DNA of 64,000 bases, from the NCBI GenBank assembly GCA_951406725.2, contig OX597830.1, positions 68,138,001 through 68,202,000 of the forward strand, given 5' to 3'. This document shows, piece after piece, positions 14,695 to 62,772 of the stretch. This stretch comes from Octopus vulgaris (taxonomy: Eukaryota). Positions within the stretch are counted from its first letter, which is position 1; every line of letters begins with the position of its first letter. Made by a program: the position numbers and the translations under genes. The notes under the pieces are model-generated. The model ran no database searches, was not told the origin of the DNA, and saw only the letters and a list, made by a program, of their open reading frames with translations.

Positions 14695-14789
14695 TTGCCA
14701 CTGAGTTCCGTCTGAAAATACGTTATTTAGTAGACTATCAATTCTTTTTCTCTTCGATGTAAGCTTGACTTCTTTCAATTCTTTTCTTC
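14695..14789 (-). CDS. TRPM: TRPM-like module A exon 9 (MHR3: GRKELKEVKLTSKRKRIDSLLNNVFSDGTQWQ)
   Basis: 95 nt, phase 1 to 0, CAA|gtaag donor; same length and homologous acceptor (taaaatctatattaaag) as 56889-56983; aligns to TRPM QL.LAL.WNR.DIA...IF....W. An in-frame alternative acceptor exists at 14849. Confidence 0.8.
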
Positions 14790-15411
14790 CTTTAATATAG
14801 ATTTTAAAATAAACCATCAGTCGATATTCAAAACCAGTGCCTGATGGAACTGAAAGAATTTCTGCTCAAACAAAACTACTTATATACTTTCCATTTCATA
14901 AACTATACAATCTGAACAAAATCGAGAGAAAACTGAGAGAAAATTAATAAATTCAAACTGAAGCTTAATAAACAAGGATAAAATTAATCTTATTTAAGGT
15001 TTAAAAGTCTTATTCCTATACCTAAAAAATAAAAATCCCTAAAAAGTTCTGCTGTCATCATTTCTAAGAATAAACACTGAAAAATGGTTTGGCATCATCT
15101 CTAAAAATAGCCAAGCAACTACTACTGCTGTCCACAGGAACGTATATAAAGAACAAAAGACAGACACTCAAGTACAGTTGAAACATTCCTGTCACAACCT
15201 GGGATCTTGAAAACTGCTTAAATGCAAGAAAGTATACTGGTCCCTTAATATTTGATGTTCAGTATTTCATCTATTCAATAACACAATCAATACTTCATTT
15301 CATTTTACTATATATACTATTTATTCTATGTATTCTATATTCTACATTAATATTATAAAGAATATAAGTTAAGCGCAAAAAACAGACAGAGTTGGAATTC
15401 CTTTGAATAAT

Positions 15412-15469
<58 letters not shown>

Positions 15470-15470
<1 letters not shown>

Positions 15471-16040
15471 ATCATCATCATCATCATCTAATGTTCACTT
15501 TCCATGCTGGCATGGGTTAGACGATTTTACTGCAACTGGTAAGCCAGAGATCTGTAGCAGCTTCTTGTTTTATTTGGAATGGTTTCCACAGCTGGATGCT
15601 CTTCCTAATGCTAACCACTCCAAGAGTGTAATGGGTGCGTTTTGCATGTCACTAGGACGGGTGTGATGTACTCGACACTGGTAACGGCCATGACTACGAT
15701 TTTACAGGTGCCATTTACATAACACTGGCAAAGGCCATGACTACTGATTCAGTTGGTTTGATGAGTTTTCTTAAGCACAGCATATCGCCATGTTGTAGGC
15801 TGCTTGTCCACGCCTCCCTGAGGCCCATGCTTCATTACTGACTCCTTTATTTCTGTGAGGTTCGACATACGAAGATCATGCTATTGGCAACGGCCACGAT
15901 AACAATTTCATGGGTGCAATTTACATGACACCATCAACGGCCACAACTGGGAATTCCCTTGGCTTGTCGAGTCATCTCAAGCAGAGCATATCACCGAAGG
16001 TCTCAGTCACTAGTCATTGCTTCTGCGAGGCTTTGAAGAT
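15470..16040 (-). mobile_element. RTE LINE 3' end with (GAT)n tail, degraded
   Basis: catcatcatctaatgttcactttccatgctggcatggg end shared with ~24450-24505 and 62925-63100. Confidence 0.7.
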
Positions 16041-17166
16041 GATAGATGTGTGTACATGCATAAATATGTATATATGCGTGTGTGTGTGTGTTTGTATGTA
16101 TGTGTGTTTGTGTGAGTGTATATGTGTACACTCACACACACATACACATGCCCACATACAGAAATACACATATTGTGGACCATATCTTCCAAAATGACAG
16201 TACAACCGTATCTGATTCTTCAAGAACTTCAAGTCTGTGAATGTACATTTGTTTATTAGATCCCTTAAATTTTGCAATGGGTTCTCCTATTTTGTTGTTG
16301 TGCCATTTTCGATAATTAATAAAACTGTCTGAATTTTTGGCGACACAGCAATGCTACTTAGATATTATGAAAACCATTTTGAGGGGAAAAAGTGCAATAT
16401 GTTTTGCTGCAAATTGCTTTTTGTAATAACTGATGTGATTAAATGTTGAATATATTAGCAGTTAATTCATAATTATTCCATAATTAATACTTAATATTTT
16501 AACATCTAACTATTATATTTCCACGGTCTTCACAAAGTCTCATAAAACCAGTGAGTTTGATGCTATTACTAAAGAGCAGTAACAGTCACCTTTCCATAAG
16601 CTTCTGTTGTTCCGACTCTAGACCCCATCTTATCTCTAGTTTGTATATCATTTAAATGACAATTTCTTCTGGAAAATATTCATTGGGTTAACAATTTCAG
16701 AAGTATACTCCTTTTACTATTTAGTGCCTATTTACAGTAATATAGAAAAGGGGAATTTGTGAGTTAAAGGTCTTCATCACAGACAAAGTACAATGCTAAT
16801 GATAACATACCATTCCCTCACATTCCAGAAACTTCTCCAGAAAATTTATTAATACAGCCAAATGATTTCTTATTGATGAAGCTCAATTAAGCTTCAACAT
16901 TCCAAGATTAACATCCAAAAACTTGGTGAAAGATATAAAAATAATAACATTAGTCATTAACTATTATTCTTTCCTCGTACATTTCACCCTAATTTAGATT
17001 TTTAATATTTTATGCTAAAAATAGCTCTTAACTTTTTGGCATGTCTAATAATTGGTTTAATTAATAATAATTAATCTAAGTTAGGAACATATTCAATGAA
17101 AGTCAAACTCACTGGAAAATGTGAAAAAGAAAAGAACGAAAATTCAATTTTAAAATTATTTCTTAC

Positions 17167-17330
17167 CTTTGAACAAAGCTTTCATGATTGCGACATCAAA
17201 GTCTTCTGGTGATTGTATATTACATACAGTTATCAAATCTACATGTCCCATGGAATCAAACACACAATCAACCAAGTCATTTGCACCCTGTTGTTTTTCA
17301 ATATCAGCTTTCAGTTGCCTTAGCATTGAT
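17167..17330 (-). CDS. TRPM: TRPM-like module A exon 8 (RSMLRQLKADIEK...EDFDVAIMKALFK)
   Basis: 164 nt, phase 2 to 1, ttttcctag acceptor, G|gtaag donor; TRPM motif LIT.......D.D.AIL.AL.K. Confidence 0.92.
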
Positions 17331-18329
17331 CTAGGAAAAAAGTTGTTTCAAAAAATATTATATAAAACTTGTAATGGTGATTCAAGGAAAATTACATTTA
17401 GAGAATAATATAAGGTCTACACTGATGTCACTAGCAAGATATGTTAACTAGAATTAATATTAGCCTGGTTACTCTGTTAGTGACACAGATGATGAAAGAT
17501 GTTAGCTGATGGACGTTCCTCTTGATGGAATGGAGCTTGATTAAAGGAGGAAGAGCACAACACATAATCTTTACAGGATATCGAAGATTGGTGAGGGAAA
17601 TTCTTGGATAAACCCCAACTCATGGGTTGTTGTTAATCATTTCTTGGATCCTGTAAATAGTTAACTTGAAAGTTATAGTGTGGGTAGGCCTGACAAGAAA
17701 TAGGAGTTATCTCTACAGATGTTATTCAGAGTATTTCTGTCATATATGGTGGTAGGCCTCTTTTGGAGAACCATTTAGCATCAATCTGTTAGTAAATAGT
17801 GATGCCATGAATTGAAAATGCTGTGAATCAAGACATCATTTTATTTCCACGTTGATAATCTGGCCTGAATGCTTGCAATGTTGTGGATTCTGTTAAAGTT
17901 TATGAAGGACCAAGTGGTCCTGTTGAACCACAACCAGTACTTCAGTGTTTGAATTAAGTTAACAACCAGAGACAGTGGGCCCAGAATTGGTTAAACCCAT
18001 ACCAGATTAATTCATATTAACCAGTTCTATCAATATGCTTTAGTGTTGTTTCATAAGGGTAAGTCATGATACTGCTTGATCTGATCCCTTAAATTGGATA
18101 GAAAAAGAAATAGAGAAGAAATCCAAACACCTCCAGGCATGTCCTCAACTTTATCCACTATCATTCCCCAGCAAATATGGAGCCTTGAATATTAGCAGTG
18201 TCATGTCATACTGCCTTAAATTTGAGTATTGTGTAACAGAAATCTGATGAGTCATCAGTTTCAGTCAAAGCTATGAATATCCTCAAAGCTATGAATACCA
18301 GCTCTAAAATCAAACTATCAACTGTAGTA

Positions 18330-18581
18330 TTAGGTTGGTGCATAATTATTGCAGCTTTTTTCAATGAATTTTATTCAACAAAAACAATAACAACATTTAA
18401 CAAAAACATCTTTAAATGATTATTCCAGAGCATATTCACCATCTACTTCAATTACTGCTTCCCATTTGCTTGGCAGCCGGTCGGAATAATCATTTAAAGA
18501 TGTTATTTGTTAAATGTTTTTATTGTTTTTGTTAAATAAAATTTATTGAAAAAAAGCCACAGTAATAATGCACCAACCTAA
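18330..18581. mobile_element. Mariner-derived MITE with ~100-bp TIRs and TA TSD
   Basis: TA|TTAGGTTGGTGCA...TGCACCAACCTAA|TA; the paralogous intron (~62377) shows the empty site. Confidence 0.92.
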
Positions 18582-18899
18582 TAATAGGTGAGTTGCAAGC
18601 CAATGTGGGAGCAAATTACCTTGTCACTCAACCTATCAAAAATATAAGTTATATCCCTCTCTAATCACACCCCTTCAGCTTAAATGGAGACAGATACTGC
18701 AGGATAAGGTTGTGTTGTTAAATACACAAGATAGTAAAGGCTGGATTACTTATATTCAGGGTTTCTTTTTATGAGGACTAATACGTGCCAAAAGACCACA
18801 TTTTAATAACAACAGAAACAGAAAAAACAACAGTAATAACAAAATCATCATTCCATCCAAATGAACAAAACTATCATTCTATCCAAATTAAGAACAAAC

Positions 18900-18985
18900 C
18901 GTTCAGTTATGTCTTTGCCCTCTTCATCTTTCTTGAGTAGTGCTTCATAAACATCTGCCATAATGTCTGCTGCTTTACCAGAACC
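18900..18985 (-). CDS. TRPM: TRPM-like module A exon 7 (GSGKAADIMADVYEALLKKDEEGKDITE)
   Basis: 86 nt, phase 0 to 2, GT-AG; TRPM GSGRAAD motif. Confidence 0.93.
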
Positions 18986-19369
18986 CTGTTAATTAAAAGG
19001 AAAAATTTAAAGAATTCATTAAAATTAAATCCAAGATTTAATTTAGTAATTTAGTATTGAACAAATATTTTGAGAAATTCTAAACAATACACACATACAA
19101 CCAATAAAGATGTCTCCTTTATGAATTTAATGTGAACTTAGCTGTAACGCATCCAGGGATGATATACAGTGACACCATCAGGCCTAGGTTGTGGAAACAA
19201 GAGTAAAATAGATAGAGTCAACTGTTGTTTTTGTATGAGATGGAACTAAATTGTTCTAGAAACAATTATTTAGAGATATGTGACAATATAAAGTAAATTT
19301 ATCGACAAAGCACAATAAATGTCAGTAGTAGAATATAAAATAAAGATATCGACAAAGGAAGAATTGGTG

Positions 19370-20560
19370 TGAGGTGACAAGCAGGGTGATCCATCTAACT
19401 CAGACCTGGTCTGAGCGGTGGGTATCACTGAAAGGAAGGGCGGAGGTTGCAGGAGTGTTTATCACCCCTGGGATTACCTACCGCCTAACCGTCGTGCCGT
19501 GCCCCCATTCGTGGCTGCTTTTCCACTTTTTGTGGGAGGGTAGAAGTCCTCTTGTAAAGCGCTCTGCCTGCTGCCAGTACCTGCTAAAGGGTGGGCTAGG
19601 CCTTAGCTATTGATGCGCAGACATGCACTGAGACATCTGTGGCTCTACCTTGATGGTGAACAAGCGCGGTCTTCATTCATTCGGTCGTTACTTCCTGAGC
19701 TTACTAGTTTGAGTGAATTAGGGCCTTGGATTAAGTGGGGTGCATGGCAAGCGGAGTGTCGTGAGACACTCAAGCTTCTCTGTCACACGAGCAATGCCAG
19801 TGTCGGGAATTCCACCTCATCTTTCTATAGAGGGTTGGTAGAGGATCAGTGTGACGACATCCTGGGCAAAGACTCTAGGCTTTGATAATGGTCAACAAGC
19901 CGGCCTGTTCCGAAGGACGATCGGGCCAGGACCCCTGAGTAACTTCCAAGGACCCCTGGCTTGGCATAGCAGTTACTGAGGAGCCTTACCATTTCCTGAT
20001 AAACACGCAAGATATGATGTCCCTTGTTCACCCATGTGCCCAAGATGCGAGCAGGACAGGGAAACCATTCTGCATGCAATCGTGCAACGCCCCAAATTTT
20101 CCGAAATATGGGTTTACGTTGAACACCTGCTGTGAAGGCTGAGAAGAATACAACTGTCTTCCGAATCGATTGTAAAGAATGTTCGTCCTTCATCTTTTAA
20201 AACAAGGTAAGGTTTGTTTCATCACTGTGGTCACTATAGCGAAAGAAGTGGTATGGAAGACCCACGTGAAAGGAATCATGACTGGCATCTTCCTCGCCAG
20301 CCTTGGACTGGTTAATGTCCTCATTTACCACCTGATGTATATGGAAGATGGAAGGCTATAGCGAGTTTGTTGAGAAGGAATGAATCCGCATAGTATATCT
20401 ATAAGGTTATACGAAAGGTTACAGTGGTGGCATAGGGCTTGCGGGGTCGAAACGAAATCTTTAACTTAAATTTTTAACTATTAAAATGTTTTCGTTTTAT
20501 CGACCCCTCTGTCATTTGTATCGTCCCCTCTATGTTTGGCCCCCTGTGGGCAATAAAGAA
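19370..20560 (+). mobile_element. Degraded L1/Tx1-type LINE 3' part
   Basis: WSERWVSLKGRAEVAG...YRLTVVPCP...LFHFLWEG...C....KGGLG..MRRHALR; 3' end GCCCCTGTGGGCAATAAAGAAA. Confidence 0.7.
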
Positions 20561-20564
20561 AATG

Positions 20565-21660
20565 TTACAATCAACTGAAATGGAATTGTCAAAACGCGAT
20601 ATTCAAGCAAGTTTGTTATTCATCATAAAAAAAAGACGTAAAGCAGCTGAAACTGTTCACGATGACAACACAACATTTGGTGAAGAAATGACAAATATAG
20701 AGGTCAGCTTGAAAAGGGTTTAAACGATCTCGCAGTGGAAATCTGAGCCTTGAAAATCGTGAGCATAGTGGACGCCCATCTGTCATCGATAACACTCAAT
20801 TAATGACTGTCATTGAGAAAGATACGTAAAACCACTCGAGAACTGGCAAAAGAACTTCAAGTTAGCTAGAAAACTACCTGCAACCATTTGCATGCGATTG
20901 GAAAATCAATGAAGCTCAGCAAATGGGTGCCACAATTTGAATGAAAATCAGAAAATGCACAGCTATTGAATTTGTTTGTCGCTTCTTCTCCGTAACAAAA
21001 CGGCTTCATTTTCGACCATTTTTTTAACTTGCGATGAAAAGTGGATTCTGTACAATAATAAAAAACGTTCTTCGCAGTGACTGGACTAAAATAGAGCACT
21101 GAAAGCCTTCCCTAAACCCAAGCTCTTCAAAAAGATGGCTACGGTGATTGTTTGGTGGTGTACTGCTGGACTCATCCACCATAACTTCCTCAAACCTAGA
21201 AAAACTATTACTGCAGAAACATATTGCCATGAAATTTCCAAAATGAATGAAAAACTGCTACTCATCCATCCCAGACTGGTCAGCAGAAGAGGGCCAGTCA
21301 TTCTTCATGACAATGATCGATCAGACTTTTCACTAATGATGCTCCAGAAGTTAAGGAAACATGGCTACAAAGTTCTTCCCCAGCCAGCTTATTCCCTAGA
21401 CCTTTCTTCAACCGACTGCCACTTTTTCAAATACCTTGATGATTTCATACGAAAGAAGGAGTTCTAAAATCAAACCGATGTTGTAAATGCTTTCAAAGAG
21501 TTCATCATCTCTAAATTTTTTTTTATGTTATCAGAATAAATAAACTTGTAAGTCATTGGTAAAATGTGTTGATTGTAATGGTACTTAAATTTCCCCGTTG
21601 TTGAACTATATTGTCGTGAATTTCATGTTTCAAAGCGTTGCTTACTTTTTATTCAGCTTG
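20565..21660 (+). mobile_element. Degraded mariner transposon
   Basis: GRPS, KWVP, TCDEKWILYNN, VIVWWCTAGLIHHNFLKP..TITAETYC, ILHDN, PAYSLDLSSTDCHFF (D,D34D-like). Confidence 0.9.
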
Positions 21661-21802
21661 ATATTTATATAAAATTCTGCACCAACAAAATACATAGTTC
21701 TTCCGTTTATTTTTCCTAACCACAAACGTCTTTAGATATGTAAACATTATAAATGGAATAAACTTCCAGTAACATTATTTAGATAATAGTCTATTTACTG
21801 AC

Positions 21803-21906
21803 CTTTAATATTATAACAGGGATGTTGCGAGATAGTGAATCAAAGGCTGACATCAGAGTTTCAAGTTCCTCTCCAACCATTACTACAACAGCTGGAATCT
21901 TGACTT
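21803..21906 (-). CDS. TRPM: TRPM-like module A exon 6 (KVKIPAVVVMVGEELETLMSAFDSLSRNIPVIILK)
   Basis: 104 nt, phase 1 to 0, tttcccgacag acceptor, AAG|gtcagt donor; matches TRPM IP.V.V..EGG..TL......P.VV. Confidence 0.92.
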
Positions 21907-22419
21907 CTGTCGGGAAAGTATATACAGAAAAATATAACTCAATTAATATACAAAATATATCTGGTTAATTTATAAAATATACCTGATTAGGGTAAAACAT
22001 ACACCCGATTACTGAATGAAAAACATACGTGATTTAATTAAAAATATATACCTTTTAAAGCATGAAGTATAACATGATCAAGGTGAAATGAATACTTGAT
22101 TAAGATACACAACATCTCTGATTCAGATATAAAGTATAACTTGATTTAGGTGTAAAATATTATGAAATATATTTGACTAATGTATAAAGTATAACTAGAC
22201 TAAACTATAAATTTTAGCAGCAGGTTTTAGAAAACATAAATTAGTATCATAATCACCATCATCAACATCGTCGTCGTCTATACCAACATCATTTAATGTC
22301 CTCCATCGATGCTGGTATGGGTCGGATGGTTTGAGAGGAACTGCAATGACAATACACACATGACAACATTAATTTCTCCCTGAATTAAATTAATTTATCT
22401 CGTATATTACTCAATCTAC

Positions 22420-23500
22420 AGTTAATCTATCTCTTCTGTTGTGGAAGGTTTCCAACCATCTCCATGCGACTAAAAGTAGACTGACACATTTCTATTAAAT
22501 AGACAACTGATGAGTTCATAGAAGCAAGTCACTGTAAGCTGTTGATTGAGAGCGTCGAGCCTCGTGTAATAGTAATCGAATTGCGTCATGTAAATATTTC
22601 TTTCCCCTGCCTCATTAAATTATATATTCAAAGCCAGGAAATAAAAGTGACGACGAGTTGTTCGAAGCTTGCTTTGGATGCTTAAAATTTTTTATGGTAC
22701 AAAACCAAAGAAAAAAATCGTATTAGCATGGAAGACTTATTGACCTCTATGTTGCAGTTGCAACAGCAACAACAGTAACTAAACAGCAACAACAACAAAA
22801 CCAACAGCTGCTGGAATTAATGTTGAAGAAGTCTGAAAATACTTGAGGTTTGTACACGCCAGACAGTGTAGCAAACACAAATGAAGAATTCAGTTACAAA
22901 CCAGGAAAACATGATTGCTTTCTCTACATGTTTTCGAAGATATGAAGAAATCTTCAAAGAAGAATGTAAAAATTGGATTGATGAAAAAAGTATGACTACT
23001 TTTAAGAAAGATATCCCCTGCCGAAATGAAAAACATAGTAATTATATTCTGTCAGAGAAGCCAAGTGAGATTTGTTTCGATGAAACAATTTTTTATCGAA
23101 ACTTTTCACCGAAAGAAGTCCCCTGTTCAGTACTCGCTGGCAATGTTTAAATTTTGTCATAAAAGATGATTTCCTCATCTATTCTGGAGTTGTTAACAGA
23201 GTGTATGAAAAATTCAGCCTAAAGGAATTAACTCCGGATATGTTCAAATGTCTAAATTTTGTTCAAGGATTTACTGCAAGCAAACATGCAGATATACGTT
23301 CCAGATATTAACGAAATTGGAATAGGACCAAATATTAACTCAACAGGTAGTAGCAGAAGAATGCCACAGGATTATATATCTAAGACATGATGCAGATAAA
23401 ATTGAAGAAAAAGATTGCTCTCTTATTCTTGCGTGTCAACCAGTAATGGATAAGAAAATGGAGAAAAAATGTCAAGACCTCTATGGTGCAGTTGCAACAG
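22420..23500 (+). mobile_element. Gypsy LTR retrotransposon remnant (putative LTR + gag)
   Basis: FRRYEEIFKEECKNW, NYILSEKPSEICFDETI, LFSTRWQCLN and ELTPDMFKCL; homologous to 11400-11760. Confidence 0.75.
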
Positions 23501-23514
23501 CAACTAAAACCTAT

Positions 23515-24507
23515 AGATATGGTAATGAAAGCTGCGTAGGCTTGAAAGAAATGCAGTTAGCATGATCTGCTGGATGTGTAATGTCAGTGTGCATACACGA
23601 CAGAGTGAAAGTTTCCTGCAAGAGGAGTTGGACATAAGAAGCATCAGATGTGGTGTGCAAGAGGGATGACTGCGCTGGTATGGTCATGTGTTGCATATGG
23701 ACGAGGACAGCTGTGTGTGAAGAAGTGTCACAGCCTAACAATGGAAGGAACCTGTGGAAGAAGTAGACCCAGGAAGACATGGGATGAGTTGGCGAAGCAT
23801 GACCTTCGAACATTGGGGCTCACAGGCAATGACAAGAGACCGAGACCTTTGGATATATGATATGCTGGAGAAGATCCGGCAAGTAAAGTGAGATTGAAGC
23901 CATGGCAGATGCCACTGTTGCATAACCGGGCCATTTAAAAGTACCCTTGGATCGTCGGGCGATATGATGCGCTTGAGAAGACCTGTTGAGTCAAGTGAAG
24001 TCGAAATCGTAATCGTAGCCAGTGCCACCTGACTGAGACCTGTACTGGTGGTACGTAATAAACACCATTCGAGCGTGGGTCAATGCTAGTCCCGTCTGAC
24101 TGGCTCCTTGCGCCGTTGGCACGTAAAAAGCACCATGCGAACGCGGTCTATGCCAATGCCTCCTGACTGGCTCCCGTGCCGATGGCACGTAAAAGGTGCC
24201 ATCCGAATGTGGTCGATGCCAGTGCCCTTTGACTGGTTCCCATGCCAGTGGCACGTAAAAAGCACTATCTGAACGTGTTCGATTCCAATGTCCCTGACTG
24301 GCTCCCGTATCGGTGACATGCAAAAATCACCCACTATCCTTTCGGCGTGGTAGGTGTTAGAAAGGGCATCCAGCTGTAGAAAGCTTGCCAGATCAGATTG
24401 GAGCCTGGTGCAGCCTACTGGCTTGCCAGTCCTCAGTCAAACCATCCAACACATGCCAGCATGGAAAGCGAACGTTAAGAGATCATGATAATGATGATGA
24501 GGATGAT
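23515..24507 (+). mobile_element. RTE LINE 3' end containing a ~60-bp internal minisatellite and (GAT)n tail
   Basis: LRWYGHV..MDEDSC, RPRKTWDELAKHDLRTLGL; tandem units at 24020-24330. Confidence 0.85.
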
Positions 24508-25059
24508 AACTAAACATGTAATCAATATCACCAATACTAAACTCGATAAAGTTAGAGATGGTACGTTGCCCTTAATTAGAACACCCGGTTCCTAAGGCTA
24601 AACTCGCAAGACTGATGAACAAGGAGCAAGTGTGGCATGTGTTTAATATGATTTCATAATTATTAGTTTACTATCAGTAATGCCTAATACCAGTATAGGT
24701 GAGTAATAAGTTTAGGCAATTTGAAAGCAGTTCCAGTGTGCTTTGTTCACTAAAACAGGTACGGATTTGAAAATTTTTAATCGATTTTCGATTTACTTCG
24801 AACAAGAGAATAGCGCTTGAAATATGTTAATTCTTTTACACTGAATAAGATACAACAAAAATGAGTGTTATATAATGAAGATTACTTCTACCTTTTTTAT
24901 CTTTTTGTTTTTTAATCTTGCCACTAAATATGAAGTGGGATATGATAGCCAGTAGGGACCTAAATTGACATGTTCACTCTACTATTAAATATATTACGAA
25001 AAGCTGAAATAAATTGGTATTGGGTATCTTATATATTGATTTCCTGTGCGGTTGCGACA

Positions 25060-25116
25060 CACCTACGCCCTGCTGGCGACACAATAATGTGTCGCGACAC
25101 AGTTTGAGTAACACTG
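25060..25116. mobile_element. hAT (Charlie-like) transposon terminus
   Basis: Minus strand reads CAGTGTTACTCAAACTGTGTCGCGACAC, with repeated GCGACAC subterminal motifs. Confidence 0.5.
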
Positions 25117-25300
25117 GCATAGAAGAATAGAATTGTTTAGATGTTAACTATTAATAATAACCTAACTATAACCAATAAAAGACTTGTTTGCTATTAAAGA
25201 GAGTAAATTAATATGATGTATATATAAACTTAACCAGTTATCCTTAATATTTCATTTCCGGTCTATACTTTATGGTTTTATTTCTCTAATAACAACTTAC

Positions 25301-25460
25301 TTTGCCTTTTGATTTGTAAAATAGTATCTTCTAACTGTTTTTTGAATTCAAGTTCTACCCCAGAAGTGTCGTTGGTACCATCATCAACAAGGATAAAATG
25401 TGTATGATTAGGATCCAAGGCGTACTCTCCTCCATTAGAATAGTTTGCAGGCCATAATCC
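25301..25460 (-). CDS. TRPM: TRPM-like module A exon 5 (GLWPANYS...LDPNHTHFILVDDGT...GVELEFKKQLEDTI)
   Basis: 160 nt, phase 0 to 1, GT-AG; diagnostic LD.NH.HFILVDDGT motif of the TRPM MHR1/2 (SLOG) domain. Confidence 0.97.
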
Positions 25461-25566
25461 CTGGAAATTAAATCGAAATTTTAGTTTTATATATATATAT
25501 ATTTATTATAAAAATCATTATGGTCTAAAAATATATTTATTGCGTTTGTTCTGACACAGAAAAATA

Positions 25567-25569
<3 letters not shown>

Positions 25570-25626
<57 letters not shown>
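25570..25626. repeat. (GA)n microsatellite
   Basis: Direct reading. Confidence 0.95.
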
Positions 25627-25879
25627 TGGAAAAAGAGAAAGGGGAGAAAAAGAGAGAGTATCAGAATATAGATTGAGTTATACTGAAAGTGTTGGTGGGG
25701 AGATTTTGATGTTCCCAGACATTAGAAAGAGGAACTCTAATGAATTGCTATACAGATGCATAATCACGCCTCCCCTACACACACATACATTCATACACCA
25801 TTCCACAGATATATAGATTCATATATGCATATACATATACATACATATATGAATGCACTCACACACACGCACAAACACA

Positions 25880-49546: not shown

Positions 49547-49623
<77 letters not shown>
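49547..49623. repeat. (TA)n microsatellite following an RTE RT fragment (49210-49545, +)
   Basis: Direct reading; LEVVDSFCYL and GGCSVSVSARIRIFWRK lie upstream. Confidence 0.85.
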
Positions 49624-49625
<2 letters not shown>

Positions 49626-51000: not shown

Positions 51001-51624
51001 CTATCAAAGACAAACAAAAGCCAAATGAACAATTGGAGTAAATTTGTGATGGGGAAGGTAGAAAAAGGAAAATGACAAAATCAAGAGATAAAGAACAACT
51101 CCAATGAAAAATACAAATATTCACAGATATAGAGATATAAATCTATACACAGAAATGGATACTTATCTTTCAATTTAGTTGAATAAAACAATGATTAATT
51201 TTAAATAAACTTAAAAGGAAAAGCAAAGAAACATTTTGCCATCAGAAGTAAATGGAGAAAAATGAGGCACACTGGGGAATAGTGATTCCACATCTGGGAT
51301 GATGCTGCCCTTACACATACAGGTCTCATAAGACCACATCAAGAAAGAAAAAAGGTGACTCATCTGACTGGCATGAAGTCACTTACCAATACACACTAAA
51401 TTCTGACCTATAGTTGTGCTGTGTCCTCTCTTTGCCTTTTTTACCACTACACAATAGCCTCTGCCCCACAGAACTGGTTGCTCTCTTTCCACCCTATCCA
51501 GGTACCACTGATACACAGATCTCTTTGTCCATTAGACTTGATCCCCACACTAACAATATAAAAATTGAATTAAGTAGGTGTGAAAAGAAACTGCATGAGA
51601 TGTCCGGTGGTGTGTCTCCTTTTA

Positions 51625-51657
<33 letters not shown>

Positions 51658-53765
51658 TTGTTCCCCTCTTGCCCAAGGAAAGAAAATGTTGATCTTATTG
51701 GATTTATCCCCCTTGCTTACTGTACAACTAAATTCATATGAAAGGTAATATTGGGTATGTGTATTTGTCACAGTTAACTGTATCAGATATTATTACTAAT
51801 GTAGTTCCTCAATATATAAACAGTATTATCATTATTGATAGTATATATTCATTACAAATAAACAAATCAGAAAAATCTATTAAAATTTATGTTTTAATTT
51901 CAAAAATATTTTTATTTTGAAAATTAGCATTCATTTTCTATGAAATTTGAAAATATATGATTATAATTATTATAGTTATGTAACATTACCTGATATTACC
52001 TGGATTGGCAAAATATATGTATTCTCAGCATTAGCCAACATAGTAATTGATAAAAACTGTTCTTAATTAATAATAATTATGTGGTGTGACAAGCTCCGAT
52101 GAAGGCTATGCTTTGCTGAGGAAATCTAATTAGACTAAAATATGTAAACAACAAGATCATTAGCGGGCCAGAAAAAATACCATGTGGTATTAGCTTCAAG
52201 TATTTATATTGAGTTCAAGTTTTACATTGCTCAACCTTTCATTTTGTCTTTCTGGAGTTGGGGAGTCATTAAAATAAAGTACCAAAACATGTCAGTGACT
52301 GTTGCCTGCAAATGCAAAGGTCACATCAAATTAGTATCAGACACTGAGCGAAAGAATTTTTTTCTTAAATATTATCAATTATTTAAAATTTCTTCAAAAT
52401 TTAAAAAACAATGGCAGTACAGTTATGAGCTGGCAGAATTGTTAAAACATATTACTTTTGATACTTAACATTCTGAGTTCAATTTTTGATGAGGCCATCT
52501 TTGTCTTTTGTCCTCTTGGAGTTTGATAAAATAAAGTAGCAGTCAAGTGCTGGTGCTCATGGTATTAATTTAACCATTCCCCGAAAAATTGCTGGTCTTG
52601 TGCTTAAATTAGAAACTATTTTCCATCCAGATAAGAGTTAGTAGATAATTTCTCTCACATCTCTATCAATAGTGTATACATGATGTGATGGCTATTATGA
52701 CTTTCCCATGATGCAATTGTTTTAGATTCAACATTCAACTTCAGATCAAGTCATTTGACAAACAAGTACATTAAAATTAATGGATGTATTCATCAGTGAA
52801 TATTTACACATGCATACACATATGTGCATGCACACACTTTCATGCACACACACACCTGTGTACGGAGTTGGTCAACATGCTGTTGGCGTTTACAGATTTC
52901 TCCAATATCCCAATTCATCCAATAAAAGTCTTTGTGAACAATGATTGATTTTCTTTTTAAAGGCATCAATCCACAGCCATAATTAACCCCTAAAGGGGAA
53001 TTTTCCAGAATCAACACCTAAAGGTAAATTTTCCCCGTAATTTTTCCTTTCACTTTTTAACTTTGCTTAACTGTCCCTTTTTAAGTATTATCTCCCACTG
53101 GAATTAAAGATTATTTCTTTTTTTATCCAACTCCTTCCCTCATATTCCATCCACCACATACAAGTGCACATACATATTCACACTGCTTGAATCTTATACT
53201 TACCCTCTCACACATATATACATTGTATAGTGGCACACATCTCTCCACACACACCTGTTGCTATTTACTCTTTCCTCTCCACACACCTGTTTATCTTTCC
53301 TATTTCTTTTTCACCTGAGTTCCACATGAACATCAACCACCCATCTCCACTCTCCTCTGCTAGAAATCCCATACCTACTAACACTTCTTGTATCCAATAT
53401 CATGATGACCATCTATAATAAGACATAGACAATCCTCATCTCCTTCCCTTAATTTTCTCTTTACCTCTCCCCCCTCTCTCTCTGTTGTCTTCCATTTCCG
53501 CATGGCTTAATATACTGACTTTGTTTTATATTTCTCATATTTTTGCTTCTTTGAATTCCTTTTGCTGAGAAACACAAAGATCTCATTTTCCCGTATATTG
53601 TATTTCATGCATTAATTCCTGCTTACCCCTCAGTATCTTCGGAAGCAGAGGAAACTGGAATCTATTGAATTATTAAATAACAATAAAACGACATTTTGAA
53701 CTTCATCCCAAACCTCCAAAAAGTATGTATTTGATGTAACCTTTGAGACTTACTCATATTTAATA

Positions 53766-53980
53766 TTCTTTTCTACTCTAGGCACAGGGCCCAAAATTTT
53801 TGGTAGGGGACAGTCGATTAGAACGACCCTAGTATGCAACTGGTACTTAATTAATCGACCCTGAAAGGATGAAAGGCAAAGTCGACCTTGGTGGAATTTG
53901 AACTCAGAACGTAAAAACAGACGAAATACTGCTAAGCATTTCACCCAGCACAGCAATGTTTCTGCCAGCTCGCCGCCTTA
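53766..53980 (-). mobile_element. SINE (octopus-type)
   Basis: Minus strand GGCGGCGAGCTGGCAGAA...GAGTTCAAATTCC...CTTTCATCCTTTCAGGGTCGATT; related copies at ~52430-52610 and 60430-60600. Confidence 0.75.
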
Positions 53981-54190
53981 ACTCATATTTAATACTAAAT
54001 ATGAAAATATAAATATAGTGAATATAACCATAAATGTATGATGAGATGGCTATCATTCATCATCCATGATGAAGTCATTTTACGTTCAACACAAACTTTG
54101 GTGAAGTCTCTTGCCAGAAAGTAGAATTCCAAAATGAGTAAATCTCTCTCTCTTTTTGTGTGTGTGTGTGTGTCTCTCTCTCTTTCTGTA

Positions 54191-54229
<39 letters not shown>

Positions 54230-54785
54230 GCATGAGTATAATTTGAAGTATCATTAGCAGACACTATGGATTTCCCACTGAGTTGATTTACAGCAATCTG
54301 ATCCTTACAAAACAGAGAAAGAAATCGATATCATAAACTCTAACTTCTTTCACCAATAAAAGAAATGAGTCTGATTGTTAAAATTATTAATACTAGAGCT
54401 GTCTTAAAAGTATTAAGTATACAGAAATGATGAATTCTCATTTTGCCAACCAAATTTATTTTGAGCCTTCTGTTGACTTTTTTCCGCTATTGATAAATAA
54501 CACCAGTGATCTAATGGTGTAAGAGTTTTTGAAGTGTAGCAACTTAGTATATTTGCAATATATTATGTGAAAAGACTTATGTATAAATCAACAATCAATT
54601 AATTTTAAGTTATCTTCATTGCTTGTTGTTTTGGGGTTACTGACATCCCCAGAAGTTTTTGTCAACTAGTTACTTGGATAATCTCGGTTGACCAAAGTTT
54701 TTCAACTCACTATGTAGTATAACTGAAATCCTTCTACACATGTACTTATATTTTATCAGAATTATGAGCTTATTGCTTGAATTAC

Positions 54786-54823
54786 CTCAATTTTATGTTT
54801 TCCTGAATCCATTTCTTTACATC
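54786..54823 (-). CDS. TRPM: TRPM-like module A exon 1 (DVKKWIQENIKL(R))
   Basis: 38 nt, phase 0 to 2, ttttttattttcag acceptor, AG|gtaatt donor; matches the TRPM2 N-terminal SSWIPENIKK motif. Confidence 0.85.
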
Positions 54824-56512
54824 CTGAAAATAAAAAAAATTTTAATTTGAATGTTTGAAGGAATGATGGAGTTCCAACATCTGACATTAATTCTATAACA
54901 GAGAATCTCAAAATTTACAACAAATTATAGAGAAGACATATAAACAGTACAAGACACGAGTAAAGCCAAGAGTATCAGGTGGAGATAATCTCATCACTAT
55001 TAATACAGATACACATGATTTCAGTTTGTCTTATTTACAATTTTTTGCATGGTACACTGGTTTTGACATTGGACTGTAATGAATGAAATTTTCTGGATAG
55101 AAACAGTGCCACATCATGATAACAGAATTTTGCTTAACCAGTTTAATCATTTGTGTAAAACTTATAAGCCATGTCAGACTTACAAAGATATAATTATAAA
55201 CTATTGAAAAGGTTGCAGGACGCAGTGAAAATTTTAGAAAAATAAAGAAGGAAATGAGTGGAAATTTTACCGGTGAGTTTGTCAGATTATAAGGCACTAA
55301 AAGAGAATGACTCTCCCCAGACACAAGAGAATAGCTCTAATATATCTTTAAAAAATGACTAAAATGAATGGGAAAATGAATACAAAGAACAGTTAAATAG
55401 TTCTGTTTATTTAATATTTTGTAGTCCCGCCCCCTTGAAAGCATATTGCACTTCCAACCTGGGTAACTTTTTAACTTGAATTCACTAAACATTCTACATT
55501 TCCAAGTGCTAAGTTTTGGAAATGGAACAAATATTCCGTAAGGTTTCTGATTATTCATCTCTACAAGAACATAATTTTCATTCCATACGATACGTTCATG
55601 ATAGAATAGAACTTAAAGGAATATGGCACTGTCAAAGCCAACAAAGTCATCGAATGTTAACCTTGCTCTGTCTTTGATGCATTTTATACGTTGACAGATC
55701 TGACTGAGATAATGGAGGTATACAGAGAAGAGTAATATTAATGATGAGTCACTGGAAGAAATGTTCAACAGTGACATGAGAATGCAGGGTTTAACAAATA
55801 AAATTATGGAAGATCAACGGAATTGTGATATACAATAGAATAGACCTATGCAACAATGTGTCAGCACAGAAGGACAGATGTCTAACTGATAATGATGATA
55901 TTTAATATTTATCATATTCATTGTTTTATATGAAGTACGTGACAACAATTTTATAGGAAGAGAAATACAAATTTATGATAACTTCTTAATTCCCTTCAAG
56001 CAGAAATTGAAACAAGGAATTGAAACTGGGAATTGAAACCAGGACAGTGTCTCAGTTCACTGGATGTTTATCTTCCAATGTAAGAGGCTAAGGAATGTCC
56101 AACTATAACTACATTCTTCAAAGACTTTCTTCCTTTGTTTATGAAGTCAGTACCATCCAACTTTCATATTATATTCTGATTATTTTCCTCTTTTTCCCCC
56201 TCTAAATAGAAACCATGCTAAAGTAGACATTGGAGCTCAACGCAGACCTCCAGATGTTTGGATCCTATTGGATTGTCCAACCTACGTTAGCAAGGAAGAT
56301 GGCTGTTAAATGATGAAACATAATTGTGTGTATGTGTGTACATATATATACATATATATATTCTAGCAAAAACTGTCCGATGAATGGCAACGGGAAACTC
56401 AGAGTATCAGGTTATGTTGAATTTTCTGCTGCTTTAAATAAAGCATATTACTCTACCACTGGTTTTTGAGTACTCTTTTTTCCACCTTATTTCACATTTA
56501 TGTGTTTACTCC

Positions 56513-56554
<42 letters not shown>

Positions 56555-56888
56555 TAGGGAGAGACAGACAGACAGACAGAGATAAATGCACACGGATGTA
56601 TACAGCAGCATCTTACACATACTGACAAATAAGTATGCACACACACATACACAAGGTGCATAAATTTCCCACTTGCTATTCCTGCCTAAAGCGATCCTTC
56701 GACTATCTCCAGTAAAAAAATTTTACAAACAAGCAATAATTATTTTACAAGCATTCAAATTATTAAAACGATATTTAAAATACATTTTTATTTAAAACAT
56801 TTTACTCTTCATCCTCTCAAGAAGAAAAAAAATTTTAAATTTATTAATTGTTCACAACATGAAGTGATAAAAAAAGATATTATCTTAC

Positions 56889-56983
56889 TTCCCGGGGAGC
56901 TTCTCCTTTAAATATTAGATGTTTTAGAACATCGGGTTTGTTCCATTCCAATCCGAGCCTCATATTTTCTATGTTTTTCTTTG
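56889..56983 (-). CDS. TRPM: TRPM-like module B last exon (AKKNIENMRLGLEWNKPDVLKHLIFKGEAPRE)
   Basis: 95 nt, phase 1 to 0, atattacag acceptor, GAA|gtaag donor; MHR3 L.L.WN..D....IF; paralog of 14695-14789. Confidence 0.92.
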
Positions 56984-57029
56984 CTGTAATATAGATTTTA
57001 CATGAAACAGTCTGTTGATATTAAAATGT

Positions 57030-57570
57030 TCTTGTGGCTGTGTGGTAAGTAGCTTGTTTACCAACCACATGATTCTTGGTTCAAGTGTCTTCTCTATGCC
57101 ACTGCGTGGCACCTTGGGCAAGTGTCTTCGTTTTTATATACTATATGTGTGTTTATGTGTACAGGGCCGACCAAAGCCTTGTGAGTGGATTTGTATGACG
57201 GTATTTGTGTATGTATATAACTAGAGAAAGAAGCCCGTGTATAGTATGAGGAGGAAATGAGTGAGAGAACTGTATATATATATATATATGCGTGTGTGTG
57301 TTTGTGTGTCCTTTGTGTTTGAACCCCCTAGCATTGCTTGACAACTACTTTGTATGATGCTGGTGTGTTTATGTCCCGTGTGTGTACTTAGTCTCTATGT
57401 GTTCGGCAAAAGAGAAAGATAGAATAAGTACTGATGATTTCATTTGAATGAAACAGTACTAGTCCTGTGGCTATTACAAAAGAATAAGTCCCGGGGTGTG
57501 TTGTGTTTGTCTAGCATTAAAGGTGGTGTGCTCCCCAGCATGACCGCAGTCAAATGACTGAAACAAGTAA
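57030..57570 (+). mobile_element. tRNA-derived SINE, heavily interrupted by small insertions
   Basis: Colinear with 11016-11395 but ~160 bp longer. Confidence 0.7.
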
Positions 57571-58011
57571 AAGCAGTCAAAGAGAGTAAATCAAAATAGT
57601 TAATAGCATTAACATGACTCATATGATACCTTGTAATTCCTACACTCTACTTTTATTATTGTTCATATTATTTCCCAAAACAGTGAGCTTGCCAGTCGTT
57701 AGTGTAACGGGGAAAATGCTTAGCAGTATTTCTTCTAGCATTATATTCTGATGTTCAGTGTTCATCATGAAATGACAAGGTTATGACAGGAATATATGAA
57801 GAATATCTATGTTGTTATTAAATAGAAATAAATATGGAATCACCATATTATATCACCCTACTGACTTAAAATGGAAGCACAAATCAGATAAAGTAGTCCA
57901 AGATGAAATTGTAGATGTCTTGGAAAAAAAGATAGGGTGGTCACAATTAAAAGACCGTGACCATTGGTCTGCACAATTACGCCTAACATGTTGCCAAATG
58001 ATAGTAGTTAC

Positions 58012-58012
58012 T

Positions 58013-58058
<46 letters not shown>

Positions 58059-58086
58059 GAGGAGGAGGAGGAGGAGGAGGAGGAGT
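58012..58086. repeat. (GTA)n(GGA)n microsatellite
   Basis: Direct reading. Confidence 0.95.
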
Positions 58087-59112
58087 AATATTTGGATTTG
58101 AAGCTTAATGCTTAAATTTTATGTAATTATGTGTAATAACTTAGTGTGACAAACTTATTCCAGATATTTCAGTCCTCAATATTTATCGTAGAAAGGGCAA
58201 AAACAGTACAAAATGTCTTTCAATTCTCTACTTCTGTCAGACCCCACAATCCTTAAATTTTATTCTTTAAGGTTGATCCAAAACTTAATAACGTTAATGG
58301 AAGAATTTGATCATTATATTCATCGTTGTTAATCATGAATGTTTTTAAAGACATAGCTATTTGCCTATCATCGAGCAATTTCTAAAGAGGCATTAAAGCT
58401 AGACAAAAGAAGAGTGTTTATAGGGTCACTCTGGAAAGTGCCACATGAAATTCTTACATTCCTAGCATTGAAAGATTCTTTGTCACTATTCAAAGTCAGT
58501 GTTGTTTTCCATAATCTCATACCATAAGACGTTTTGCAGAGTAGGTGCTATTTTATAACTTCCCAAATATTTCCAATCCAGCTTTGTGGTAGACTATCAA
58601 AGCTTATTTATCATACTATTGATAAGTTCTTGTGTTGTTTGTGACAATCTTCCAAAATCATCTTATTGATGAGTTGCTGATCTTTACAACTATAGAACCC
58701 ATGTTTACAATCTTTTGTTCATTAAGGAAGATACCACTTCTATTAAAAAACTACAGGTATAATCAGTTAAGACAGATGTTAGTATCTTATACATTGTTGT
58801 TAAGCAGGTTATGGGTCTATGATTTTTGGTTCATTTGCTTCTTCATGTTTCTGAAGTAGAAATGTAACACCATTAACGAGCCAAGAGGGAATCGTACTTT
58901 CAGAAAAACTTTGTTGTAAAGTTTCTTTAGCTTCTCATGACTCTCCGGTAAGGCAACATTTGATCTTTGCTGCCAATATGAAACTTTCAGTCACTGTTTT
59001 CAGTCCTGAGCTTCTCAGCTACTGATGGGTTGTTGCTTGGTCTACATCAGCATTTCGGCTTCAATGTATATACTGTCCATGCAGAGGCTTCTGGCTCCAC
59101 TGCACTTCATTT

Positions 59113-59113
59113 A

Positions 59114-59169
<56 letters not shown>

Positions 59170-60300
59170 CATTATTATTCTTATTATTATCATTATTATT
59201 AATCTTATTATCTCTTTATTACAGGTTTTGTTGGAACACCTGGAGTCTTGCATGCGTATTGGGTTTACTACCTGCTCTTTACAGTTATCTAATACTGTCC
59301 TGATTATTCTGGCCGTGCCAAGGAGGAAATCCTTTTGTAACAGTTCTACTGGGAACTCTATTCCGATTTCCTTTATATTCCTCTTGATGCCTTCTCATAC
59401 TCTTCCCAAGGATCTAACAATAATTGGCACTGTCTTCACCTTCTTCATTTTCCATAGCCTGGCTATTTGATACTTAAAATGATTGCATCTATCTTTTCAT
59501 CTTCTTTCTTGATTGTTCGTGGGTCAACAGGGCAAGCAACATCATTTATATAACATATGTGGTGCACCTTGTCCTCCACCACTAGGTCCAGTCTGTTATG
59601 CTCTAGCATTTGATACGTTTGGATTGGGAAATCCAGAAGATTTTGCTAGTCTCCAATTACCGCCAATCTCTGTGGTTTGTGCTCATGCTGTGTTTTGACT
59701 CTCTCTAGCCCTCACTTTTCACACAGTTTCTAGTGGAGCACTTTCACTACTTGATCGTGTGGTCACAACTTATAGAGATTTTGCTCAAGTCTATGGCACT
59801 CGTTCATGATATGGGCAGTAATTTCATCCACTCTATTGCACCAGTTCTTTGTAAGTACATTTCCAGTCCAACTGCTTTTATTTTGTAGTTCTCTATCTGT
59901 GTCAAGACACCATCTTCTGAGAGGGGTAGATATATTCTGTTTTTGTCTGCTGTGGGGTGGTGACTTCTGTATGCTGTTAATAGGGTCTTTTTATCTAAGG
60001 TTTTCAATTCACTGTTCTTCAAGTATGATCAGTATAGCTAGCATGCTTGTTTCTATCATATTAGTTTCAGCATTGACTTCAGTGTTTAAATATAAGTCTA
60101 ACTATTCTTTAATATTCTCTACTAATTTACTCTTTCATTTTTGTGATGTATTCTATTTCCACTGTTCCTAGATGTGTGGGCGATTGAGATCTAATTTTCT
60201 GATTTCTATGTCTATGTTGAGCGCAATATTTTCAGTATTGATTAATCTGGCTCTTCTCAATGTCTCTGTCTCTTTGAAACATTTGTCCAGCCACCCAATA
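59113..60300 (-). mobile_element. (ATT)n tract followed by a degraded Dong/R4 LINE 3' part
   Basis: LLQKDFLLGTARIIRTVL, TVPIIVRSLG and ELKTLDKKT...HHPTADKNRIYLP..E.G. Confidence 0.75.
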
Positions 60301-60321
60301 TCCATACTGAAACAATTTTAG

Positions 60322-60600
60322 AAGACACTTGCTCAAGGTGCCATGCAGTGGAACTGAACCTGGAAGCATGTGGTTGGGAAGCAAGCTTCTTACCACAGCC
60401 ATGCCTGCACCTATATATTCTTTTTTACTCTAGGCAAAAGGCCCGAAACGTTTGGAGAGGGGCTAGTGGATTAGATTGATCCCAGTATGCAACTGATACT
60501 TAATTTATCGACTCCCAAAAGGATGAACTCAGAATGTAAAGACAGACCAAATCCCACAAAGCATTTCACCCAGTATGCTAACGTTCCTGCCAGTTTGCTG
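60322..60600 (-). mobile_element. Two adjacent SINE fragments
   Basis: 60322-60412 matches the 48080 head; 60430-60600 matches 53766-53980. Confidence 0.7.
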
Positions 60601-61194
60601 CCTTCTTGTGCCGATATATTAAATGGCAATTTCGTCAAGACAAGAACTATTTCCAACTAACTATTTCTATGGCTAAGGTTAGATTGAGTGCCTCAAATCT
60701 GGAAAATATTCATCGTGATAACAATTGCAGAAGCATACTGTTTTTACTATTTTGTATCTATTTTCAGTAATATAGAAAAGGGGAACCTGTGAGTTAAATG
60801 TCTTCACCAGAGACAAAGTACAATGCTAATAACAACATACAATTCACTGAGACACCAGAAGCTTCTCTAGAAAATCCATTGATACAGCCATCGATTCTCT
60901 TATTGATGAAGCTTAATTAAGCTTCAGGTACAGGATTAACCTCCCAAAACTTACAAGAAAATATACAAATAATAGTATAAGTCATCAATAATATTGTTAT
61001 TCTTTCTCTGCATATTTCATCCTAATTTAGATTTTTTAGATTTTTTATACTAAAAATAGCTCTCAACTTTTTTACAAGTGTAATAATTAGTCTAATTAGC
61101 AATAATTAATCTAAATTACAATTACGTCTAATAAAAGTCAAACTGATTGGAAAATATAAAAAAACTGAAAATTTAATTTTAAACTGTTTCTTAC

Positions 61195-61379
61195 CCTTGA
61201 ATACAGCTTTGAACATTGTTAGATCAAATTCTTTCACTGAATCTTTATCATAAACAGTCAGCAAGTTTGGTCGTTTTAGGGACATCAACACATAGTCAAC
61301 CAAGTTATCTATCCCTTTTCCTTTCAATTCCTTTTCAAATTCTTTAATAATTTGCTCTCTGATATCAGTTTTCAGTTTC
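61195..61379 (-). CDS. TRPM: TRPM-like module B exon (RKLKTDIREQ...NLLTVYDKDSVKEFDLTMFKAVFK)
   Basis: 185 nt, phase 2 to 1, G|gtaag donor; paralog of 17167-17330; the ancestral AG is missing and the next AG 12 nt downstream is in frame. Confidence 0.88.
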
Positions 61380-62683
61380 CTTAGAATTGATGGAGAAAGA
61401 AGAGTTATTTCAGAAATTAATATGTAAATCTTTTAATAGTGATTAAAAGAAAGTTAGCTATAAAGAATAACATAAGGTCTATACTGATGTCACAAAGAAG
61501 ATAAGTTAGGCTACCTTGGAGCCCTAATCAGAATTATGTTAATCAGGCTACACTATTAGTGATAACAAATGATGGGACAAATCTTAATATAAGGAGGAAA
61601 GGCACCACCCATAATTTTTACAGAACAACTAAGATTAATGAGGAAAAGACATGGATAAAACAGAACTCATGGGTTGCTGTTAATCAATTTTTGGATCTTG
61701 TAAATAATTAATCTGGTAGACATAGATTGGGGAGGCCTGACAAGAAATGGGGTTGTTTCTAGAGATGTTGCTCATAGTAACTCTGGCATATATGCTAGTA
61801 GACCTCCTTTTGAGAACCCCTTACATGTCAGCCTGTAGCAAACAGTGATGCTATGAATTGAAAAGTCTGTAAATCAAGACATGGCCGGTTCTGAATGCTC
61901 ACAACATTGTGGACTGTTAAAGGCAGTGAAGGACCAAATGCTCCTGTTGAACCACCACCAGGTACTTCAGTGTTAAAAGATGGAATGAATTAAGTTTACA
62001 GCCGGAGCCAGTGTGCCCAGAACTGGTTAAACCCATACTAGATTTATTCATAATTACCATTTCTATTAATGTGCTTTCATGTTGTTTCATGATACCTACT
62101 GCTTGATCTGATCTTTTAAATTGGATGGAAAACGAAATAGACAAAACCAAACATCTCTAGGCATGTCCTGAATTGGACCCATTATCCTTCCCCAGCAAAT
62201 ATGGAGCCTTGTGTCAAAATAACAAATCAATATTATGATTATTATCAGTGTCAAGTCATACTGCCAAAAGTTTGAGTCTTTAGTTAAAGAAATCTGATTA
62301 GTCATCAGTTTCAGTCAAAGCTTTAAATATCTACAACGCTTTTAATATCAGCTCTAAAATCAAACTATCAACTATAGTAATAGCAGAGTTGCAAGCCAAG
62401 GAGGGAGCAGATTACCTTGCCACTCAAAACTGCTAAAAATATAAGTTAAATCCATTTCAAATCATACCCTTTCAGCAAAAAGGAAGACTGACACAGTGGA
62501 ATAATAAAGTCTTCTAATAAATATGTAAATACAGGAAAATAAAGACTGGATTACATACGTTCATAGACCTGTTCTATCAGGGCTAATAGGGGCTAAACAA
62601 CAACATATTTAATAACATCAACAGTAATGACAACAACAAAAGCAAAAAAAAAAATTATTGTTCTATCGAAATGAAGAACAAAC

Positions 62684-62772
62684 CTGTCATTTTCCTCTTC
62701 ATCTTCTTCATTTGAATTTTCGAGTTTTGTTTGGTAAGCATCTGCCAAAATATCTGCTGCTCGACCAGTATC
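62684..62772 (-). CDS. TRPM: TRPM-like module B exon (DTGRAADILADAYQTKLENSNEEDEEEND)
   Basis: 89 nt, phase 0 to 2, GT-AG; G.GRAADILA motif; paralog of 18900-18985. Confidence 0.93.

Follow-up and report, generated by a model that had tools for sequence, protein, structure and literature searches.

The question raised by this locus is whether a series of melastatin homology region (MHR) modules encoded in octopus DNA forms a protein of its own or the front part of a TRPM ion channel. The stretch analysed, here called the window, comprises 64,000 nucleotides of Octopus vulgaris DNA (C17:68138001-68202000) and is free of N. It contains the end of one MHR1-3 module (module B) and, in the same reading frame, a complete second one (module A). 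The array probably forms the N-terminal part of a giant TRPM-beta channel of octopus, in which four to five MHR1-3 units precede MHR4 and the segments S1-S6. A preliminary description, made from the letters of the window, had proposed tandem MHR1-3 modules in one frame that arose from a duplicated phase-symmetric unit; RNA, other species and an open frame of 997 codons agreed with this.

All 12 exons named in that description were recovered on the minus strand with AG acceptors, GT donors and compatible phases. The recomputed length of module A was 1077 nt in nine exons, corresponding to 359 codons with phase 0 at both ends, so that the unit is symmetric as described. Exons B9 and A1, both phase 0 at their facing ends and given as about 2 kb apart, are separated by 2065 nt. 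The features are listed below, with window positions unless C17 is indicated.

62772-62684, minus strand: B7, module B exon 7, 89 nt, phase 0-2; in RNA contigs
61379-61195, minus strand: B8, module B exon 8, 185 nt, MHR3; in RNA contigs
56983-56889, minus strand: B9, module B exon 9, 95 nt, end of MHR3, ends in phase 0; in RNA contigs
56888-54824, minus strand: B9-A1 intron, 2065 nt, GT-AG; spliced out in RNA contigs
54823-54786, minus strand: A1, module A exon 1, 38 nt, phase 0-2; in RNA contigs
51000-50916, minus strand: A2, module A exon 2, 85 nt; in RNA contigs
44234-44054, minus strand: A3, module A exon 3, 181 nt, LSDAT_euk 3-62; in RNA contigs
30222-30059, minus strand: A4, module A exon 4, 164 nt, LSDAT_euk 64-114; outside both RNA-covered stretches
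25460-25301, minus strand: A5, module A exon 5, 160 nt, LSDAT_euk 130-168; in RNA contigs
21906-21803, minus strand: A6, module A exon 6, 104 nt, acidic loop replacing the glycine-rich loop; in RNA contigs
18985-18900, minus strand: A7, module A exon 7, 86 nt; in RNA contigs
17330-17167, minus strand: A8, module A exon 8, 164 nt, MHR3; in RNA contigs
14789-14695, minus strand: A9, module A exon 9, 95 nt, ends in phase 0; in RNA contigs
8661-8636, minus strand: linker micro-exon, 26 nt, phase 0-2, in frame after A9
C17:68137608-68137581, minus strand: partner micro-exon, 28 nt, just outside the window, completing the linker from A to a third module (C) in frame

The Pfam profiles used were LSDAT_euk (PF18139), TRPM2 (PF25508) and Ion_trans (PF00520). 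Three of the 11 exon peptides scanned (A3, A4 and A5) passed the LSDAT_euk cut-off, and the remaining eight were too short or lay outside the profile. MHR3 is also present: exons 8-9 of the paralog model P0003 could be aligned with the equivalent region of NvTRPM2 and TRPM3, and B9 was aligned through P0003 to the matching stretch of solved TRPM chains. Exon B7 encodes the arginine equivalent to R358 of human TRPM2. Proteins from the window matched Octopus models at 87-100% in seven of eight matches.

Splicing between the modules was assayed in sequencing runs chosen from 24 candidates, four of them (three studies) aligned to positions 43900-62900 and four to positions 7500-26000. The B9-A1 junction (56889/54823), with the 2065-nt intron removed at GT-AG borders, was present in all four runs and all three studies, as were the junctions A1-A2 and A2-A3. 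A single 631-nt contig contained B7-B8-B9-(A1)-A2-A3, and a single 528-nt contig contained B7-B8-B9-(A1)-A2. In the second stretch A5-A6 was joined in two of four runs, A6-A7 in three and A8-A9 in two. A 519-nt contig extended 73 letters beyond A9, and we infer that its depth explains that of the bin with the 26-nt micro-exon. Assembled contigs cannot reveal transcript starts or ends; an extra internal start may exist within the B9-A1 intron, which holds 31 in-phase ATG..GT stretches, as expected by chance in 2065 nt. The B9-A1 junction is shared by models of O. sinensis and O. bimaculoides, and the intron itself is homologous to the introns preceding exon 1 of modules B and C. The preliminary description had asked for reads across this junction and had considered that module B might be a truncated paralog or the region misassembled. 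The first alternative disagrees with the spliced junction, its presence in two other species and the 997 codons without a stop, and the second with the splice in RNA and in these species and with the homology of the intron. The locus is real, expressed and conserved in three Octopus species.

The reading frame continues beyond the window on both sides. Exons 1-6 of module B lie upstream (C17:68247290-68209001), and exons 1-6 of module C lie downstream of A, reached through the 26-nt and 28-nt micro-exons, which encode the same 18-residue linker that is present in models of O. sinensis and O. bimaculoides. When B, A, the micro-exons and C(1-6) were concatenated from their coordinates, the product had 2991 nt, or 997 stop-free codons. 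As a control, neutral substitution was simulated at 0.10-0.15 changes per site, and a single module remained stop-free in 1-53 of 1000 runs. The window's copy contains at least three MHR1-3 units, and not one melastatin region per subunit. It ends at a 100-N assembly gap (C17:68083022), short of module C's exon 7. A tblastn search of 264 kb around the window matched neither MHR4 nor channel exons, compared with 11 matches in the control, a second copy here called the twin locus. The earlier observation that no channel exon is visible between the modules thus extended to this larger region, but the channel-less protein deduced from it was not upheld as stated, since the absence reflects the size of the window and the assembly gap.

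The twin locus (C17:79.66-79.25 Mb) has no N in 470 kb. Over 63,007 aligned bases it shares 98.35% identity with the window, and it is colinear with the window's copy up to about 4 kb before the gap. Its order is N-terminal micro-exons, a hybrid module, modules Y and Z, ten acidic micro-exons, module V, MHR4, S1-S6, a coiled coil and a stop, and four MHR1-3 units were counted. All junctions from the first module through V9 are GT-AG and phase-compatible, and the ten linker micro-exons alternate between phases 0-2 and 2-0. MHR4 and S1-S6 stand downstream of the modules, in phase apart from three small indels. Because the twin continues through the linker to a further module, MHR4 and S1-S6, a multi-unit TRPM-beta channel without NUDT9-H is likely. 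The twin locus and the gene models P0009 and P0010 end after the coiled coil, and no NUDIX or PF25969 match was found in any of the three. Two other assignments were tried and dropped: module C as a Z/V hybrid, as introns colinear with the twin's Z region argue that C is Z, and an acidic tail with a stop as the true end, because the last exon of this tail has a phase-matched donor and five further in-frame exons lead to module V.

The same order was found in the other copies. Linker micro-exons follow Z9 in all three places where Z9 was found, V1 follows the last linker exon in four of four places, and an MHR4 match comes next after all three V modules with a continuing contig. The copies appear to be of two types, one with four modules (hybrid, Y, Z, V) and a full type with five (X, W, Y, Z, V); in O. 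bimaculoides the number of units is probably five. Genome-wide, 81 LSDAT_euk exon matches were obtained, mostly in clusters on C17, and MHR4 (PF25508) occurred at only seven loci. The cluster region is interrupted by many N gaps, with changes of strand at gaps, and contains copies that are almost identical; uncollapsed haplotypes may account for some of these, and the copy number in the assembly is uncertain. A contig between two gaps (C17:67695503-67803159) begins with Z7-Z9 and linker exons and is a candidate continuation of a copy cut at Z6, e.g. the window's. In the copy at C17:69054413-69122222 no Z7 follows Z6 before the next gap, and this copy is possibly truly truncated. An alternative exon after S2 was observed at C17:79289641-79289540 and 67593100-67593035. 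It ends the O. bimaculoides models P0017 and P0166 early and would yield a pore-less product like TRPM2-S; in O. vulgaris it holds an earlier in-frame stop.

The database models of Octopus species each cover parts of this chain. In O. bimaculoides, XP_052830016/7 has four modules, is named 'uncharacterized' and ends by reading into the intron after Z6. The consecutive accessions XP_052830018-21 are four isoforms that run from Z8 through the linker to V, MHR4 and S1-S2. The O. vulgaris model P0009 joins Z, linker, V and channel, with two LSDAT_euk stretches and Ion_trans. The separate O. bimaculoides and O. vulgaris models therefore appear to be split annotations of one gene. The O. sinensis model P0010 (XP_036366251) has a single module, whose first half, 98% identical to module B exons 1-5, continues directly into V's second half and the channel; it is either a deletion allele or a product of module-skipping splicing. 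Module number ranges from one to five among models and copies. The databases thus split or truncate the gene, and the repeated architecture is hidden in entries for uncharacterized proteins.

The origin of the modules was examined in a tree of 49 rows with a midpoint root and a single alpha-type row, whose deeper placement rests on published beta assignments; the octopus and cuttlefish TRPM2-like relatives are listed as beta in the available parts of two surveys (PMC13143021; PMC13402157). The 17 module rows formed one clade (100/100), nested among octopus and cuttlefish TRPM2-like channels without NUDT9-H (100/99). Since the modules grouped by position across three Octopus species, the duplications predate the split between O. 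bimaculoides and O. vulgaris plus O. sinensis. The cuttlefish relative found has a single module. Outside Octopus, three or more ordered modules were seen neither among the 150 best matches from 1.84 billion representatives nor among the best 120 of 204 matches to the four-module model, in libraries in which cephalopods are thinly sampled. In module B the first and second module types are recombined: its exons 1-5 are X-like (87% identical to X, 46% to W) and its exons 6-9 W-like (62% to X, 88% to W).

Ligand residues were compared with those of human TRPM2, which according to the accessible text of two sources binds ADP-ribose via M215, Y295, R302 and R358, its isolated MHR1/2 having a dissociation constant of about 0.5 uM (bioRxiv 10.64898/2026.03.30.715250; PMC6759353). 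In the 17 module rows Met215 was kept in none, the aromatic residue in six (as Phe, which also occupies the Y295 position in molluscan single-module channels), Arg302 in 14 and Arg358 in five of the 15 covered; no module in these rows keeps all four. The pocket of module B has Ala, Phe, Arg and Arg and keeps the glycine-rich loop. Module A has Val, Ser, Lys and Lys, with an acidic loop where the glycine-rich one is expected, and the innermost module V has Glu, Ser, Arg and Gln. Of the possible multivalent ligand sensor of the preliminary description the tandem modules stood, but a sensing of ADP-ribose was weakened by the incomplete residue sets and the acidic loop of A. Judged by its residues, module B would be the best candidate for continued binding of ADP-ribose or a related nucleotide.

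An alignment-based fold was run on the paralog model P0003, which has the same junction type as B-A. The mean predicted local distance difference test score (pLDDT) was 74.3, with mostly 80-95 in the modules and less than 50 at the junction, and the predicted template modelling score (pTM) was 0.48. The best structural match was human TRPM2 over about 330 columns, with a root-mean-square deviation of 3.0. The prediction is consistent with units that fold separately and are connected by flexible joints. An arrangement of four modules as a pseudo-tetramer ring was unsupported, as the fold has no confident packing between modules, and a single-sequence fold of P0007 (mean pLDDT 35) was discarded. 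In the channel part, acidic and amide residues of S2, S3 and the TRP helix align with those that form the calcium site in TRPM2.

Compared with TRPM2 and other TRPM-beta channels (human 6puo and 6mix, Nematostella 6co7), the octopus modules match MHR1/2 and MHR3 in sequence and predicted fold, and the downstream part likewise has MHR4, S1-S6 and a coiled-coil end. Those channels have one MHR1-3 unit, whereas the octopus type probably has four to five and lacks NUDT9-H. The ADP-ribose residues are complete in TRPM2 but partly lost, differently in each unit, in octopus, where the filter glycine is also replaced by alanine. The cysteine-rich stretch that precedes MHR1 in those channels is absent from the octopus modules, which the alignment shows to be joined directly. 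The closest tree relatives are single-module cephalopod TRPM2-like channels (XP_052830098, XP_014781149, XP_014774531 and the cuttlefish cluster with CAE1165048). They give no NUDT9-H match, as in the array gene, and in octopus lie on the same chromosome-scale record, but unlike the array they have one LSDAT_euk each. The type of XP_052830098 and cuttlefish keeps Met, the aromatic residue, both arginines and the glycine-rich loops.

Two LSDAT_euk stretches before MHR4 and Ion_trans were also present in XP_072049890-2 (P0173/P0027) and in Sanderia malayensis gene9475-10465 (P0023), in gene models as annotated for two unrelated animals. Each pair groups with itself, far from octopus, indicating independent duplications with two units only. 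The sturgeon model P0018 (nine stretches) was not counted as a parallel, being marked unverified and made up of near-identical scrambled pieces; nor was the oyster model P0021, whose second SLOG stands after the channel and which resembles two fused neighbours. One recent survey describes, in the part available, the melastatin region as four domains constant across TRPM and TRPS channels (section 27 of PMC13143021); in its Table S1 the 3' half from O. bimaculoides, XP_052830018, appears as an ordinary TRPM-beta. A cephalopod TRP survey left out incomplete predictions, and in its accessible text only XP_052830098 and CAI9735236 of the accession series checked appear, so that the octopus beta channel is represented there by its single-module form (PMC13402157). 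Little TRP expansion in octopus is reported in the available text of two preprints (bioRxiv 10.1101/2021.11.14.466824, 10.1101/2024.05.23.594666). No description of tandem MHR arrays in octopus was found in the literature, subscription papers and bioRxiv supplements aside.

Several observations weigh against a single giant channel. Among the best 120 of 204 matches to the four-module model, no database protein has all modules and the channel. In RefSeq, P0004 stops within the linker, and several other models end at Z exon 6 by running into the intron; these could be genuine short 3' ends. The twin locus itself has three frame-breaking indels, in X4 (-2), Y6 (-1) and the third MHR4 exon (-1), so that it is a decaying copy or carries assembly errors; the X4 and Y6 sites are intact in the window's copy and the third site in the 67.6 Mb copy. 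At C17:69.05 Mb, no exon Z7 was seen in the 68 kb leading up to the gap. The sequencing runs were presumed to be RNA, as no record labels them so. Their coverage is limited to the modules of the window, with the linker and the linker-channel joint outside the RNA stretches, and the contigs show as many as 8 (43900-62900) or 13 (7500-26000) mismatches to the window in an exon, to which paralogs or alleles may contribute. In the selectivity filter a Gly present in the other rows is replaced by Ala in P0009, P0010 and the C17:79271250 exon.

If the short models are taken at face value, the array would be mainly a soluble, channel-less protein made beside a separately started single-module channel and acting as ligand buffer or channel regulator. 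All eight database models matched by proteins from the window have 2-4 LSDAT_euk stretches without Ion_trans, and the spliced B+A+C lacks a transmembrane stretch, its highest 19-residue hydropathy being 1.39 (2.53 in the channel). Channel-less or pore-less short isoforms such as TRPM2-S suppress the full channel, according to the part of the source available (PMC9948629), although these are truncations of a single-module gene and the octopus locus is a tandem array. A terminal exon was nevertheless not found; each short model reads through a GT donor that is phase-matched to the next linker exon, four O. bimaculoides RefSeq isoforms run from Z to V and MHR4, and the chain breaks coincide with N gaps in the copies examined, the 69.05 Mb copy being an unclear case. 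We therefore regard this explanation as unlikely, and less likely than a channel with repeated modules. An assembly or annotation artefact, or a pseudogene array, is highly improbable. The gaps, strand flips, near-identical copies and possible haplotypes of the cluster and the indels of the twin would be in line with it, but the B9-A1 splice in four of four runs, the same junction in two further species, the 997 stop-free codons and the gapless window contradict it, and for the B-A junction it is largely refuted.

The outer modules might also be tolerated by-products of unequal crossing-over, kept in frame only because they stand upstream of a needed channel and without a role in sensing. The ratio of nonsynonymous to synonymous substitution (dN/dS, NG86) between modules was 0.87-1.12 in nine of ten pairs and 1.83 in the closest pair, with intervals including 1 in all ten; NG86 values can be biased by AT-rich codon use, and values near 1 fit relaxed constraint as well as diversifying selection. 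Orthologous modules of O. bimaculoides and the other two species are 76-80% identical, compared with 85-94% for three single-module paralogs. The varying module number and the general loss of M215 point in the same direction. Module order and type are nevertheless kept in three species, the modules are predicted to retain their fold, and module B keeps the aromatic residue, both arginines and the glycine-rich loop. We give this explanation a rather small probability, below that of the soluble protein, and a channel with repeated modules is preferred to both.

Sequences resembling mobile elements were observed on the minus strand of the introns. The A3-A4 intron holds three long overlapping open frames of about 400, 515 and 500 codons (38206-34221), which have the appearance of a fairly intact non-LTR (long terminal repeat) retrotransposon. 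Fragments in the A4-A5 intron (28852-27399) resemble a mariner-type transposase and a PIF1/Helitron-type helicase. Broken reverse-transcriptase-like remnants of long interspersed nuclear elements (LINE) are located at 42236-40512, 34012-32441 and 60028-59110.

For the preferred channel, the following origin and working are likely. A nine-exon phase-symmetric unit would have been duplicated inside an octopus-specific TRPM2-like gene without NUDT9-H, and unequal crossing-over would still alter the number of modules. As in TRPM2, the innermost module would be coupled to the gate and MHR4, yet with a degenerate ADP-ribose pocket, and opening of the pore would be driven chiefly by calcium and by the ligands of the outer modules. 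These modules would fold separately on flexible joints, each with a differently altered cleft, thereby widening or tuning ligand recognition. This sensing role of the outer modules, suggested by residue comparisons, is the weaker half of the interpretation. It is possible, though we put it forward with reserve, that each subunit carries a series of four or five clamshells, diverged from each other and nucleotide-binding, which makes 16-20 in a tetramer, and that recombination reshuffles module number and hybrids among gene copies, providing combinatorial intracellular sensors on one pore.

The octopus array would represent an architecture new among TRPM-beta channels. Provided that the full transcript exists, it would be a natural experiment on the coupling of MHR1/2 ligand binding to gating, since intact and degenerate pockets would stand in one chain, nearer to or farther from the pore, and alleles with one to five units occur naturally. 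It would also add a fast-evolving, copy-variable candidate family of sensory or immune genes to octopus biology.

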